A stretch of 64,000 nucleotides of DNA from a virus (Duplodnaviria > Caudoviricetes): positions 68,905 through 132,904 of IMG/VR virus record IMGVR_UViG_3300021408_000001; one strand, written 5' to 3'. The notes beneath the pieces are model-generated. The model did not search any database. It saw only the letters and a list, made by a program, of their open reading frames with translations, and was not told where the DNA came from. The position numbers and the translations under genes were made by a program. Shown piece by piece: positions 2,419-60,412 of this stretch. Position 1 is the first letter of the stretch, and each line of letters opens with the position of its first letter.

Positions 2419-2569
2419 CCGAAATGCGCGTGTGGGTATAGCATCCACTAACACAAGCCCCCCCCCCCCCTATACTTCGCTTTATACGTATATGGAAATT
2501 CGCCTCCTCCAATATGTATGTAACTTTATTGTACTAATTGAGGGGAGTTATAAGAAGAGAGTGGATGCA

Positions 2570-2634
2570 CAGACGTATGTTCGTACGAACATATGTTGGG
2601 GGTACAAATGTTCCCAAAATCGAACAAATGTTCG
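2570..2634. promoter_or_regulatory. cluster of LexA (SOS) box-like sites
   Basis: TCGAACAAATGTTCG (2620-2634) fits CGAAC-N4-GTTCG; degenerate copies at 2570-2583, 2586-2599, 2601-2614. Confidence 0.6.
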
Positions 2635-3289
2635 CTCGTATAAAGTCGTTTCCTCGCATACCGTGCATCCCACTGATCTCGGTACATATGAGAGTTGCGT
2701 TCTAAGCCTCAGAATCCCCGCTTGGGTAGCGAGTCGCTCGGGAAGGGTTTCCTCCCCTCAGAACGTCGTTTGGGCGGCTCTCAGAGAACAGGGGTCACTT
2801 CCCTCGCGTTCCCAGGACCCAATTCCGCCGAATCCGCAAGGGGGTCGCCAGCGGGGAAAGTTACCGGCGGTAGGTAAACACTGTTTACCTGGGCTCGAAT
2901 CGGTCGGTAAATCGGTCGGTAAGTCGGCGGGTAAGCCCTAAGGCCCAGATTTGGGCACCCAAGAATCGGACTAAAGGCCAGGTCAGGACCTACAAACCAC
3001 GACTTAAAGCCAGGCCCAAACCAGCCGATTACGGACCCTAAATTTGGGAGCTGGCGCCGCGCGAAAGCCCAGCTCACGCCCAACCACCCACGGACTCACG
3101 CCCACAAGCCCCGGAGAGCCGCACCAGGAGTTGAGCGCGAGCTGGCGCCTGGAAAGCCAGGCCAGGGCGGCTACGGGCCGCACAGGGGCCTGTGCTGGCT
3201 TGCGCGGCCGAGTGCCAGCCACCAGGGCGCGCCCTGGGACGATAACAGTCGTTATGACTGTTACTTGGTGGGTGCAGGCGAGGCGTTGT

Positions 3290-3910
3290 TCGCAGTGACA
3301 AACAACAACCCACTAAGCCAGCACGGAATGCGAGCGATGGATGGCCTGTGCGCACGAAGACTGTTCGCGGACGCAAACAAGTGAGATAATGCGGATTATT
3401 AAGCCAGTAGGGTTGCCAGGTACTAACGCGGTCTGTAAGTTGGTGGGTGCCCGAGCAGTACGAATCGGGCGCAGGCATGGCACTGGATCGGGTTAGTCGC
3501 TTTCCAGCTCCCAGCCGAAATCGGGCAAACAGCCTGCTAGCGGTGCGAACCGCGGGGCGGGCGAACGACCAGGGTGCGACCTGGTCAGTAAGCGGTTTAG
3601 CCCTAGCGCTAAGGCGATATCCCAACCGGATTACCGGTAATGCGGTTTCCAAGCGAGCACGTGATGGTGAGAGACGTGCGGTTGCGAATCCCCTAACTTA
3701 GCAGCGCTTAAAGCTGAAACTCTCTATGGGAGTCCTACAAAGGTCCTGGTCACGGTACGTACCGTAGCTAAGCTAAGCGAACGGTCCAATGGGGTTAGGT
3801 ATTAGTGCTAACCCGGGCGGAACAAGTAGTAAGGCGATGGGTAAATACAGTCAAACCAGAATCCGGGCACAGGGTAGGTCAATTAGAGAGTGTTGCTTAA
3901 ACCCTTTCTT
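3290..3910 (+). ncRNA. candidate large structured non-coding RNA (boundaries approximate)
   Basis: No credible ORF or RBS; many stem-loops (GACCAGG..CCTGGTC, GCGGT-GCGA-ACCGC, GCACGT..ACGTGC, GGGTTAG..CTAACCC); long-range ACTCTCTA/TAGAGAGT pairing. Confidence 0.5.
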
Positions 3911-4270
3911 TCCCTAAAGGTGAGAATAACGGGGGATGGCATCGCCTAGGGGGTCACTTAGAAACCCGAACGGTGCCATCCCCTGCTCACTAACGATTTG
4001 AATACGCACAAGGGGTAGCTAGTTGTACTCATTGAAACCGCTTATGCCTAATCGTGCATAGGTATGGAACGTGGGCACTAGCTACCCCCTGTGTTTATTC
4101 AAGTCTAAGAGGCGGGTAGCACGTGAACGGTCACCTTAATAAGTGAAAGCTTGTGACCGAACACCTTAAAGTGCACAAACCCACTCTTGCTAGGCGTTAG
4201 CACTTACCGGTGAATAACAACCTGGTGGGTAGCTAGCGCCTAGCGGCTATCGCAAAGCACAGGGGGAGAC

Positions 4271-4423
4271 ATGAATACACCAAACGAAAGCGCTTATGAC
4301 TTCTACTACGCACAAGCGATGATGGAAGGCGTGAATGCCAAAGAGGCAAGCGAGTACGCAATTCAGCGCGCCAGCAACCCAGGGCGTGACTTCTACAGCC
4401 ATATGTTGGCGCAGGCTCGTTAG
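4271..4423 (+). CDS. hypothetical protein (50 aa), first cassette gene
   Basis: AGGGGGAG RBS; TAG stop is the first base triplet of element 1. Confidence 0.65.
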   Translation: MNTPNESAYDFYYAQAMMEGVNAKEASEYAIQRASNPGRDFYSHMLAQAR

Positions 4424-4495
4424 TGATACTGAGACGTTAGGACTTAGGCCCTAACGTTGATTGTAATACTAACAATGGGAAAGGGAGCTAGTTAA

Positions 4496-4834
4496 ATGAA
4501 TAAGTTCGGAATCAAGGTCATCGTGGGTCTGTTCATCTTCGTGATCGGTTACGGTGCTAACGCACTGGATACCGCGAACGCGACGAACACCCCTGTGAGC
4601 AAGAGCGTCAACCTGGTGGCCAATACCGATAACCCTGACGTAGTGGTTACGTGGGGTACTGGTAACGAGGACGAGGATAATCTAGTGATTACGGTTGACG
4701 GCGCGGAAGTGCTTCGCACCCACGTTGACCAGCTCGCTAGTGGTAAGCGTCTGGTCGTGGTTGATGCCGATTGGTTCAACGGTTACGTGACCTGGTATGA
4801 CGCCAACGGTGCAGAGTTCACCAAGAGCCGATAG
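4496..4834 (+). CDS. secreted/membrane-anchored hypothetical protein
   Basis: Signal-peptide-like N-terminus; element plus GGGAAAGGGA RBS upstream. Confidence 0.75.
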   Translation: MNKFGIKVIVGLFIFVIGYGANALDTANATNTPVSKSVNLVANTDNPDVVVTWGTGNEDEDNLVITVDGAEVLRTHVDQLASGKRLVVVDADWFNGYVTWYDANGAEFTKSR

Positions 4835-26358: not shown

Positions 26359-26391
26359 TAGGAGGGGATTAGCTTAGCTAATCCCCTCCTA
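26359..26391. terminator. perfect 15-bp hairpin, possible terminator
   Basis: TAGGAGGGGATTAGC-TTA-GCTAATCCCCTCCTA; no clear U-tract. Confidence 0.45.
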
Positions 26392-33885: not shown

Positions 33886-34032
33886 TCATCTTGTAGAGCA
33901 CGCCTTGATCGTCTTTCAAGGGCAAGCATTTGAAGGTGGCGACGCAAGAGATAATGCTAGAGAAGCAATGAGGATGGCACTAGAAGCAGTAATTAAAGAT
34001 CTTGCTGCGTTACTCGGGTACGACGAAGAGTC

Positions 34033-34087
34033 TTAGCCGTACAAAAGCACCCTGTGAAATATTCACAGGGTGCTTTTGTACGGCTAA
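34033..34087. terminator. bidirectional terminator-like perfect inverted repeat (26-bp arms)
   Basis: TTAGCCGTACAAAAGCACCCTGTGAA-ATA-TTCACAGGGTGCTTTTGTACGGCTAA between convergent ORFs. Confidence 0.75.
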
Positions 34088-34099
34088 AACTAAAAAAGC

Positions 34100-40180: not shown

Positions 40181-40253
40181 GGGGGCGTAGCCCAATGGCA
40201 GAGGCAATAGGTTGAGGGCCTATCCAGTGTGGGTTCGACTCCCACCGTCCTCA
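40181..40253 (+). tRNA. tRNA-Leu(GAG), short variable loop
   Basis: Cloverleaf; ATAGG-TTGAGGG-CCTAT. Confidence 0.9.
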
Positions 40254-41500
40254 CGGTAAAATGGTTTAAGCAACACTCTCTAATCGACCTACCTATCCGG
40301 AAAGGCTGGCTATGACTGCGGTCGTGCTTGCCATGATGGCTTTAGTAGTATCCATAATTGCTGCTCTATGTGCTATTATTCAAACATATAGAGAACGCAA
40401 CAAGGACCAAGGTGGGGGCGTATGATCAGGAATGTTGGGTCTAAATTTGGGGTGGTAGAGAAGTGGACTTACATGATCCTCTTTTTCATACCGAGTGTTA
40501 TACTATGGGCATACTTCCGACTTTTTGATCGAGAGCGGTTACAGAGTGGTCATGAATACACTGACTACTGGATATCCATATACGTACGCGTGTCCGTAGC
40601 CATCGAGCTGACCTTGATATTATGGGTCCTACTAGTGATCTTTGGAGACTGAGCATGTCCAATGAAGATGTTAGCGCTGGGTTAGCTGTTTATGGTAACA
40701 TCATCAAACGACTTCTCTCCGGCTGGATACCTAATCATAAGAGCGGTGTTTTAGTACATCAGTGGTGGCATCCTCATAAACCAAATAACTATATAGATCC
40801 GATGTCCGAAGCTGAGTTCCTAATTCTTGATGAATTAGAGCATGAATTGGACACGGAAACAATCAAGGGACTGAAAATAAATGAATGAGACCCAATTCGA
40901 GCTAATTTGTGAGCGTGTCCATTATACATGGATAGATAAGAAACTGAAGCAGGGTATCATATCACGCCGCGCTGAAGATGGCGAAGAGTTGATGGTTGGA
41001 TACAAGAGACTATCTGAAAAGGCTAAAGATCTCGATAGAGATACAGTTCGTACGGTTTTAGACGCAGTAGATGAGCTAGATGAGCTAGATCTATGAGCAG
41101 TGTCTATGAGCATTATCTTCCTCTTGCTTTTCCATACCGACTAGAAGCCCACAAGGATACAGTTGATGACTTAGTCAGGCAACTAATATCTTGGACTAGG
41201 TCCGACACACCTGTTGGCTCTAGCTTCGCTGTAACAGTCGAGCGCGCACCAGAGCGTACCTACCTATGGTTGAGTAGGGTGAGTGCTGATTTTATCAGAA
41301 AGTATCTAGTAGATGATATAATCGTATCAACCGTAGAAACTAGAGAGTGACATGCGCGAAGATCCGAAGTTCCAGTGCTCTTGTGTGGTATGTCCATGCG
41401 AATACCCAGTTTTCAATGAGAACGTTTTTTGTCAAAAATGTACTATTGGGTATCATGTCCTAGTAGATCTCGGACGTGACCCAGGGGAATCGGACTAGTA

Positions 41501-58301: not shown

Positions 58302-59030
58302 ATGTTTGATATTACAGAGATTCTACGGGTTGAAGCTGGCTCTAGAGCTAATGGTACGAGTATTTCAGATGATTCTGATAAAGATGAAATCTCAATCGTT
58401 GTCGAGCCTCTTAAAACTGTCATGGGCCTAAATAGACAAGGTTTTAAGACACTGATGGTACGCACCCAACCAGACGGTGTTCCATCTGGGCCAGGTGACC
58501 TAGACCTAAATGTTTACTCACTTAGAACCTTTCTAGAGCTAGCTGCTGCGGGCAACCCGTCGATTCTTGCTGCACTGTGGGCACCGATCATCAATAGCAA
58601 CGATGACGGGGACCTACTACGCAGCAGCAGTAAATTGTTTATCGGCCGTCATGTGATCCCGAAACACAGGGGGTACATGCGCCAACAAGTTCTTCGCCTA
58701 TTTGGTCTTCGGGGTAATCCTAGAGAAGAGTATGTAGGCGGACATGGCTACGATGTTAAGCTTGCTATGCATGCTACTCGTCTGGGAATGCAGTGCATCG
58801 AGCTGCTCACCACGGGTGGACTAGAGCTTCCTCTCTCAGAAGATCGAGCCCTTAGGTTAAGGGAAATTCGTAAGGGCAATGTACCATTTGATGACTGGTG
58901 GGATGAGTGCCAGTCTTTGGACAGTAAGCTAGAAGCTATGTTGTCTGATGAATCCATCAGGGAAAACGCGGACACAACTTGGATCGTAAAACTATCAATT
59001 AGAATTCATAGTAAGTACTGGATCTTCTGA
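58302..59030 (+). CDS. pol-beta superfamily nucleotidyltransferase (T4 NrdC.11/RlaP-like)
   Basis: GSRANGT..SDKD; GNPS; GYDVK.AMH..RL. Confidence 0.8.
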   Translation: MFDITEILRVEAGSRANGTSISDDSDKDEISIVVEPLKTVMGLNRQGFKTLMVRTQPDGVPSGPGDLDLNVYSLRTFLELAAAGNPSILAALWAPIINSNDDGDLLRSSSKLFIGRHVIPKHRGYMRQQVLRLFGLRGNPREEYVGGHGYDVKLAMHATRLGMQCIELLTTGGLELPLSEDRALRLREIRKGNVPFDDWWDECQSLDSKLEAMLSDESIRENADTTWIVKLSIRIHSKYWIF

Positions 59031-59725
59031 TGCTCTACGTTGTTACCCACACCATGGAAGAGTTTAAGCAGTGGCAGTACGTCACATGGACGAGTAGAAA
59101 TGCCTATATAAAACATATTTCAACTATGTTGATGCCCGACCGATTAAGAGGCATCAGATTCAACTCATCCATCCCCAAGCGAATTATACAAGATCCATTT
59201 AGTGCTGCTCTTTTTAGATTACATCCTTTTCACGGGTGTGACGAAATCGAATTCTTTGGCACTCCTGAGAGAGGCAAATACGCTAAAGATGTACATAGAG
59301 CATTGTTCTATGCACGCGTACCAGAGTCTTATTTAAGGTCATTCGAATATGACATTAAGCGGTGGGAACGCGAAGAGCAATACTATGCCGACAGTCGTAA
59401 CTACCTTTGGTATAGTAAAAAATACAAAATAGAATATACACTCCCACCTCGGGTAAAAGGTTATTAAGCGTGGACGACGAGGAGCCGCCACCATACTCTG
59501 ATCCATTTAGTATGGCCTTATCTAAGCACCTCGTGTTTAGAAATGGGCGGTGGATGCATGGTTGCGAGCTTCACCATACTATATACGCAAGGGCATTTGG
59601 AAAATCTTTAGCTGCCATTGGCATTGCCTTTGCAAACGTTACCTATGCTATAAACAATGCTATAAGCCAGCAAGAAATGGCACAAAGGATTAAACAACAT
59701 CAGGATGCTATACTAAATAGGGAAT

Positions 59726-60412
59726 ATGAAAAAGTACCACAAAATTCAAACCCTGTACGAGCGCGACGGTCGTGGGAAGATCGTTACTCAAAATCTAACA
59801 CGGCCTATCTACGGAACAATCAAAGACTGGGCGGTAACCGAAAAGGTCAACGGTACTAACATCCGTATTGGGTTCACCATGCCTTATGGTGGATGCCCGG
59901 CAGTAAAGTGGGAGCTTGCAGGCAGGACGGATACGGACACCCCTGACATCCCCGATAAGCTCGTACGCCACGTCACCGGCCTTGCGGTGAACATCTCCCC
60001 CGTCGTACGTGATATCATGGACGGACACGGGCTAGAGCGGTACACCCTCTATGGTGAGGGTTATGGGGCTGGTATTCATAAGGGCGGAAGGTATCGGGAT
60101 GACAATGGGTTCATCCTGTTCGATGTCGCTGTCCACGATCTCCAGATGGGTCAATTATACCTATCTGACGATGTTGTTACAAAGACTGCAAAGGAACTAG
60201 ACATCCCACGCGTTCCGCTGTTAAATAGTGGCGAGACTATGACGATTGAAGAAATCGTTGAGCTTGTACGCTACGGGTATGCCTCTGATGTCGCTGAGAA
60301 GTTTGATGAGAACTTTCTAGCAGAAGGCATTGTTGCTCGGCCAGTGGAACCTCTTTACGACAACCGTAAAGAGCGGGTTATGTTCAAATTGAAGTCCTCA
60401 GACTTCGATTAA
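59726..60412 (+). CDS. RNA ligase, Rnl2 family
   Basis: KYHKI, TEKVNGTN (motif I), LYGEGYG, FILFDV, EGIV, FKLK. Confidence 0.85.
   Translation: MKKYHKIQTLYERDGRGKIVTQNLTRPIYGTIKDWAVTEKVNGTNIRIGFTMPYGGCPAVKWELAGRTDTDTPDIPDKLVRHVTGLAVNISPVVRDIMDGHGLERYTLYGEGYGAGIHKGGRYRDDNGFILFDVAVHDLQMGQLYLSDDVVTKTAKELDIPRVPLLNSGETMTIEEIVELVRYGYASDVAEKFDENFLAEGIVARPVEPLYDNRKERVMFKLKSSDFD

Follow-up and report, generated by a model that had tools for sequence, protein, structure and literature searches.

The stretch of DNA analysed here (the window; 64,000 nucleotides) derives from a soil metagenome, where it makes up bases 68905-132904 of a viral contig of 132.9 kb. On the - strand, the genes for terminase, portal and tail run from ~72 kb to 18 kb, and from 72 kb onward the + strand carries small early genes, 15 tRNAs, a primase and a PolA-type polymerase; GC skew changes sign at window 2500-3200, coincident with this switch in gene orientation. 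An ENA contig of 155,744 bp, from a second assembly, is colinear with the 132.9-kb record and supplies a further 22.7 kb linking the end of that record to its start, such that the true genome should be ~155.6 kb; the size of the ENA contig is compatible with a circular assembly plus a k-mer overlap. The added 22.7 kb includes a 541-aa TROVE (Ro60-like) gene and an Excalibur-domain gene (L050 13213-20663, L051 1-6566), whilst genes with RlaP and RNA-ligase domains (window 58302-60412) adjoin the tRNA cluster; together with the TROVE gene, this suggests an RNA-repair/RNA-quality-control set. The subject of this work is a 2.06-kb gap without a credible gene, between a leftward RHH-like gene and the first rightward gene, with the following features in and around it:

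1699-2211, leftward: RHH-like gene, 170 aa
2212-2700, no strand assigned: divergent control region, AT-richer, adjoining the RHH-like gene; partly alignable to relatives L046, L054 and L061
2657-3696, no strand assigned: GC-rich island, the largest in the genome, overlapping the 5' half of the conserved element described below
2861-2890, no strand assigned: operator-like block, GTTACC-N4-GGTAGG plus a GTAAAC..GTTTAC palindrome
4271-4423, + strand: first + strand gene, 50 aa, RBS GGGGGAG, with no homologues outside this phage
4424-36340, + strand: cassette array, with ~45-55 spacers that carry a common element before the start codon

Independent gene callers also left the gap empty, and its ORFs have a junk-like composition, no Pfam matches and no codon-position GC periodicity; nor did recoding of TAG as Q (six-frame ORFs, Pfam, codon-position GC plot) open a frame in it. 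Scans of 2715-4143 gave neither a convincing sigma-70-type promoter nor anything resembling a terminator, and none of the genome's large ORFs was recognised as a phage RNA polymerase. The sequencing runs that contain this sequence are of DNA from the source soil sample, with no RNA runs listed.

Parts of the gap, notably 2212-2900 with its operator-like blocks and perfect palindromes, may have purely DNA-level roles. The control region holds a DnaA-box-like TTATCCACA near 2410 and an 18-nt perfect palindrome at 2576-2593 (CGAAC..GTTCG, LexA-box-like), and the adjoining island reaches 72% GC against ~47%, is T-poor at 3050-3170 and has a GC-raised counterpart at the same location in the relatives. 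The operator-like block recurs in L061 (9249-9287) and L059 (263-301) as GTTACC-N4-GGTA(G/A)G followed by a GT(A/T)AAC..GTT(T/A)A palindrome, the arms conserved and the spacer variable, which is the behaviour of a DNA site; in several relatives it lies 500-700 nt upstream of the RHH gene. Perfect palindromes of at least 14 nt number three in 1.2 kb of the gap (2576-2593, 3222-3237, 3752-3765) against 15 in 133 kb, and this local enrichment of zero-spacer palindromes suggests that DNA-level sites are present as well. Elsewhere in the window there are near-perfect palindromes of 63 nt (34029-34091, the strongest local fold of the genome scan) and 33 nt (26359-26391).

Relatives were obtained by profile search with two RHH proteins, and proved to be four uncultivated phages of common layout: an RHH gene, ~2 kb without genes and then a cassette array. 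In L061 (JGI, 34.5 kb), the RHH gene is followed by 2,037 bp without genes and an opposite-strand array of small genes ~70 nt apart, whose spacer element is that of the window; the gene-free stretch upstream of the RHH gene is at least 1,935 bp in L056/L057 and 1,322 bp in L060. Similarity of the flanking RHH proteins is remote (profile E of 1e-20 and 1e-7). Window 3420-3990 can nevertheless be aligned with the relatives at the DNA level: with L056 at 3600-3954 (67%, E 4e-36) and at 3451-3528, and with L061 at 3885-4019 (E 3e-13) as well as 3422-3467. The closest relative, L046 (66% RHH identity), ends at ~window 2590, before this stretch; its positions 1-25 are Illumina adapter (AGATCGGAAGAGC...), an assembly artefact in this Logan contig. 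Neither the second assembly nor the Logan contigs differ in sequence over this stretch, and they thus offer no micro-diversity. No homologue of the stretch was found by blastn against phage GenBank, in IMG/VR (by flanking proteins, RHH alignment and three DNA motifs) or in JGI metagenomes (by RHH alignment and cassette motif); terminase-related IMG/VR phages, with genomes of 50-80 kb, contain nothing similar to it, and homologue searches with the 50-aa and 112-aa rightward genes came back empty.

An initial annotation, made from the letters alone, had proposed a large, helix-rich non-coding RNA at 3290-3910, at the head of the cassette array. The stretch is indeed ORF-poor (no Pfam matches or codon-position GC periodicity, with or without TAG read as Q), it lacks the cassette RBS, GGGAAAGGG first occurring at 4477, and all seven of the helices that had been named can be found in place. 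Their supposed abundance did not hold up: against dinucleotide shuffles, 3290-3910 scores z -0.58 on the + strand and -0.56 on the - strand, and none of its 150-nt windows (z -1.7 to +0.65) stands out. Folding no better than shuffles had been named as grounds for abandoning the proposal, and for 3290-3910 that is the outcome, but it is overturned by covariation in the relatives, so that the shuffle test on this stretch is not decisive. Four of the seven helices have such backing (GTGCCCGA/TCGGGCGC, GCACGT/ACGTGC, GGGTTAG/CTAACCC and the long-range ACTCTCTA/TAGAGAGT) and three do not: GCGGT-GCGA-ACCGC recurs in L056 as sequence, at a different position; an ACCG/CGGU hairpin takes the place of CCGG-ATTA-CCGG; and GACCAGG/CCTGGTC has no counterpart. 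The boundaries, too, must be moved: the element with covariation support spans ~3440-3991, and the segment of exceptional folding energy, 3915-4285, begins just past the proposed end. As to class, cmscan at gathering scores found only tRNAs in the whole window, sensitive mode on 2500-4700 gave two chance miRNA matches (E>3), and GOLLD, ROOL, group I and RNase P, the suggested affiliations, are matched neither here at E<=10 in Rfam nor in the relatives. Of the two options offered, a described class or a new one, it is therefore the second that survives, as a conserved structured element on the + strand; the initial annotation had the nature of the feature largely right, but not its particulars.

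The features of the covariation-supported core are as follows:

3447-3473, + strand: hairpin h1, with invariant loop GAGCAGUNCGAAU and a different stem in each of four phages
3541-3554, + strand: hairpin GCGGU-GCGA-ACCGC; L056 has a near-identical copy, GCGGUGCUAACCGC, upstream of h1
3629-3651, + strand: hairpin ACCG-GUAAUG-CGGU, invariant in L056
3657-3680, + strand: hairpin h5, with loop GAUGGUGNNAG after a conserved AGCGAG
3719-3891, + strand: rod domain, an irregular ~40-bp helix closed by ACUCUCUA/UAGAGAGU, the long-range pair of the initial annotation
3919-3991, + strand: hairpin H1, with basal helix GGUGAG/CUCACU and a 15-bp main stem

Compensatory pairing is seen in four parts of the core, namely two hairpins with invariant loops, the 173-nt rod and H1; this covariation evidence comes from three to four related sequences only, and two of the structures were scored on the very alignments that yielded them. 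In h5 the stem reads CACGU/ACGUG, CGUGG/CCACG and UCUGC/GCAGG in three phages, with 94% of cells paired and double changes in three of six pairs, against 17-50% pairing in slid controls. The h1-type loop sits at another position in L060, and the location of the L056 copy of GCGGU-GCGA-ACCGC upstream of h1 means that module order differs between relatives; at 3629-3651 the outer pairs are GG/CC in the window and CCCC/GGGG in L056. For the rod, L056 retains every one of the 40 consensus pairs, 12 through compensatory change, with closing partners ~170 nt apart and the closing slot filled in L056 by a different, equally complementary helix; the apical loop is GUAUUAGUG (3799-3807). Since the rod structure was derived from the same alignment, it was controlled by shuffling columns within conservation classes, which gave z -4.7 for the consensus energy and 3.9 +/- 1.8 compensatory pairs against the 12 observed, a number reached in 0 of 200 shuffles. 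In the three-phage alignment of H1, 62 of 62 cells of its 21 pairs are standard and seven pairs are compensatory, against 42-58% pairing and 0-1 compensatory pairs when partners are displaced by one to three columns; the idea that H1 is tRNA-like was considered and dropped.

As to strand, three G-U positions of H1 are conserved on the + strand, and the consensus (alifold) energy is -93.0 on the + strand versus -74.6 on the - strand. Not every comparison gave a signal: transfer of the single-sequence MFE structure to L056 kept 33% of pairs against 37-43% in slid controls, and no common structure across 3420-3720, the middle part 3480-3650 included, was significant. Upstream, 2890-3440 has a high structure score with L061, on which we do not rely, the alignment being only 24% identical. 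Invariant loops on covarying stems are the reverse of the pattern of a dimeric DNA operator. Overall, the comparison shows a structured element at ~3440-3991 that is conserved, + strand-biased and outside all Rfam families.

The core contains a pyrimidine tract and runs on into an array of long hairpins:

3902-3915, + strand: pyrimidine tract CCCUUUCUUUCCCU, 14 nt, complementary to the cassette RBS AGGGAAAGGGAG
3993-4250, + strand: three long hairpins, H2 (3993-4107, 43 bp), H3 (4106-4190) and H4 (4186-4250)

With H1, these form four long hairpins in 3915-4285 that score z -10.97 against shuffles, with energies of -165.8 kcal/mol on the + strand versus -142.0 on the - strand, and 13 G-U pairs versus 6. 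Equivalent arrays in L061 (z -11.1) and L056 (z -11.9) have little sequence similarity to it, such that the comparison shows the presence of a hairpin array abutting the first RBS to be conserved, and its sequence not. The paired lengths (H1 20-21, H2 43, H3 28 and H4 25) are those expected of RNase III-type substrates, i.e. near-continuous dsRNA of at least ~20 bp. Within H2, the 3' arm, CCCCCUGUG (4085-4093), has an alternative partner in the SD region of the first gene, CACAGGGGG (4257-4265). Within its own array, L056 carries tandem GAGTGAAGA repeats and three AGAGAGTGTT copies (186-361 on the - strand; S 1575-1750).

Further downstream, the spacer element of the cassettes consists of CTGAG, a variable hairpin of 10-12 bp, (C/G)AATTG, TTACTA(G) and GGGAAAGGGA, and is the same in L061. 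Its AATTG..TTACTAnATAGGGA portion bears a loose likeness to T3/T7-type promoters. The cassette hairpins have no U-tracts and are not canonical terminators, so that a need for antitermination is not evident. On the + strand GGGAAAGGG occurs 44 times against 0.4 expected. The pyrimidine tract, CCCUUUCUUUCCCU, is unique in the window and identical in all three of the phages that reach it (the window, L056 and L061); its duplex with the RBS AGGGAAAGGGAG is 12-13 bp long at -19.4 kcal/mol, as compared with -9.7 kcal/mol for a B. subtilis-type 16S anti-SD tail. In the alifold consensus the tract can also pair locally with AAAGGUGAG. The one GTDB match to the tract was set aside, as it falls within a bacterial ORF of 1215 aa and is no better than expected by chance.

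The left part of the tract also belongs to the genome's only dispersed inverted repeat, in which 3873-3907 is an inverted copy (33/35) of 40259-40293:

3873-3907, + strand: left copy, comprising the 3' base of the rod, a linker and the start (6 nt) of the pyrimidine tract
40259-40293, + strand: right copy, 4 nt after tRNA-Leu(GAG) (40181-40254), in the 5' UTR of a 37-aa ORF

The duplex of the two copies has an energy of -66.6 kcal/mol. The ORF (40312-40425) encodes one hydrophobic helix, the repeat match ending 18 nt before its start codon; faint similarity runs on into the tRNA 3' end (GTGAG) on one side and into TCCGG on the other. Of the 35-nt segment, the AGAGAGUGUU part folds into a local hairpin in L061 and is absent at that place in L056, which has three copies further downstream; pairing in trans is thus not conserved. 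The partners are 36 kb apart, rather than adjacent as in the antisense RNAs of type I toxin-antitoxin systems. Contigs across both copies show no rearrangement or joint, and a transposon reading of the 35-bp repeats was dropped for want of a target-site duplication.

Synthesising these observations, we propose, with a probability of about 0.55, that ~3440-4260 on the + strand encodes a new family of large structured RNA, which forms the leader of the long early cassette operon. The RNA would arise as the 5' portion of the rightward early transcript, with its action mainly in cis. That it is a leader we infer from the lack of any terminator-like or sigma-70-like site between the element and the genes; a free-standing gene is less likely. 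Position, strand and the absence of terminators make plausible the earlier suggestion that it is the first product of the early transcript. We suggest that the core might serve as a protein- or RNA-polymerase-binding ‘platform’ that, on the pattern of put, EAR or conAn2, programmes a 36-kb hairpin-punctuated operon, with the long hairpins acting as RNase III-type processing or 5'-stabilising sites and one of them, by way of an anti-SD/anti-anti-SD alternative, ‘gating’ the first RBS. In addition, the pyrimidine tract could pair with the RBSs of the cassettes.

That last property can be taken further, into a possible if doubtful scheme in which the core is cut out (e.g. by RNase III at H1-H4) as a stable trans-acting RNA. 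The conserved tract would then mask the early GGGAAAGGGA RBSs as an anti-SD stronger than 16S, thus gating translation of the early programme of ~45-55 cassettes through their private RBS, AGGGAAAGGGAG, in a global early-to-late translational switch, whilst a second antisense arm, the 35-nt segment, would pair with the tRNA-Leu trailer that is also the 5' UTR of the small membrane peptide's mRNA. The invariance of the tract in three phages, its more favourable energy relative to the B. subtilis-type tail (-19.4 versus -9.7 kcal/mol), the 44 RBS copies where 0.4 are expected and the 33/35 complementarity to 40259-40293 (-66.6 kcal/mol) are all consistent with this, and long dsRNA hairpins would suit such processing. 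Against it, a single tract would face ~45-55 RBSs, unless the RNA accumulates, the tract may have a local partner in AAAGGUGAG, and the trans pairing of the 35-nt segment is kept in neither L061 nor L056. We also weighed a role for the 35-bp inverted repeats alone, as DNA boundary signals of a 36.4-kb early region. They bracket the cassette array plus the first tRNAs almost exactly, and Twort-like phages have 12-bp inverted repeats at their terminal-repeat borders (PMC7596081), but the left copy lies inside a covariation-supported RNA structure, contigs run through both copies without joints and a terminal repeat of 36 kb would be unusually long, such that we regard this as highly improbable.

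Location raises the question of whether the stretch functions solely as DNA, a divergent control region and origin with protein-binding sites of which the helices are by-products. It lies at the GC-skew minimum and gene-orientation switch, in a gap enriched in palindromes of at least 14 nt (3 in 1.2 kb versus 15 in 133 kb) and with an operator-like block of conserved arms and variable spacer; furthermore, the window contains 10 copies of TAGAGAGT where 2.5 are expected, and tandem AGAGAGTGA repeats occur in L056. We nevertheless think it unlikely, as several hairpins combine invariant loops with covarying stems, the opposite of dimer operators, compensatory pairs span 170 nt, and G-U pairs favour stability of the + strand, something that sites in duplex DNA offer no means of selecting. 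Less likely again is an origin transcript akin to the ColE1 RNA II primer, with a persistent hybrid at a polypurine/polypyrimidine tract that initiates bidirectional replication. The location at the skew switch, the length, the multi-hairpin architecture, the invariant homopurine/homopyrimidine tract and a DnaA-box-like site ~1.5 kb away would all fit, but the minimum of the skew lies closer to 2800-3200 than to 3900, the pyrimidine side would be on the RNA strand, no replication initiator gene lies alongside, and the exact match of the tract to the RBS motif points instead to translation.

If the leader reading is correct, its nearest functional precedents may be HK022 put, Bacillus EAR and especially conAn2, all cis-encoded structured RNAs that lie in the 5' leaders of very long operons. 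Large RNA antiterminators head such operons (PMC8191782, PMC9378689), and the present element takes up an equivalent position between a divergent control region and ~55 co-oriented cassettes, with the + strand favoured; conAn2, from Gram-positive conjugative plasmids, has 260-600 bp with essential GC-rich and stem-loop parts, and its sequence is poorly conserved between systems (PMC9378689, PMC8191782). The element nevertheless has no sequence or model similarity to any of the three and is larger (a core of ~550 nt plus ~260 nt of hairpins), and, unlike conAn2, it comes with no recognised ConAn1-like gene and with downstream hairpins that lack U-tracts. With GOLLD and ROOL (PMC5737381; bioRxiv 10.1101/2024.12.08.627333) it shares a length of several hundred nucleotides, predicted structure and a tRNA-rich phage host, whereas neither Rfam model matched at E<=10 and its place at the head of an operon suggests a leader instead of a free-standing gene.

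The hairpin array has its own parallels, as does the tract. In the RNase III-processed early leaders of phages, such as the lambda N leader and the T7 early RNA sites, near-perfect hairpins of 20-45 bp lie directly upstream of the first early gene, as here, and one arm can mask or unmask an RBS; the present array differs in having four consecutive hairpins after a large conserved core, and its cleavage is predicted. Anti-SD sequestration and antisense control of translation are known from P22 sar, lambda OOP and the type I antitoxin RNAs, with which the element has in common a conserved, predicted single-stranded tract complementary to an RBS, along with 35 nt that are antisense to the 5' UTR of a gene for a small hydrophobic peptide; here, though, the tract fits a motif of ~44 genes, not one, and the antisense partner is 36 kb away. 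T4 RegA is a protein that represses translation, and were the anti-RBS reading true, the element would be an RNA counterpart of protein translational repressors of this kind.

The element would, then, be a previously undescribed, evolutionarily conserved folded RNA ahead of the early genes of a soil phage, and probably acts in cis on the early operon. The case illustrates that a real RNA can be missed by a negative shuffle test and revealed by comparative data. Large structured phage RNAs are few and their functions mostly unknown; in this instance a position at the head of an operon, covariation, and an invariant motif with a candidate target in the operon's own RBS make concrete experiments possible. 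Depending on which reading holds, the element would extend the RNA-based operon-level regulators by a third or fourth kind, or represent a new form of global translational control.
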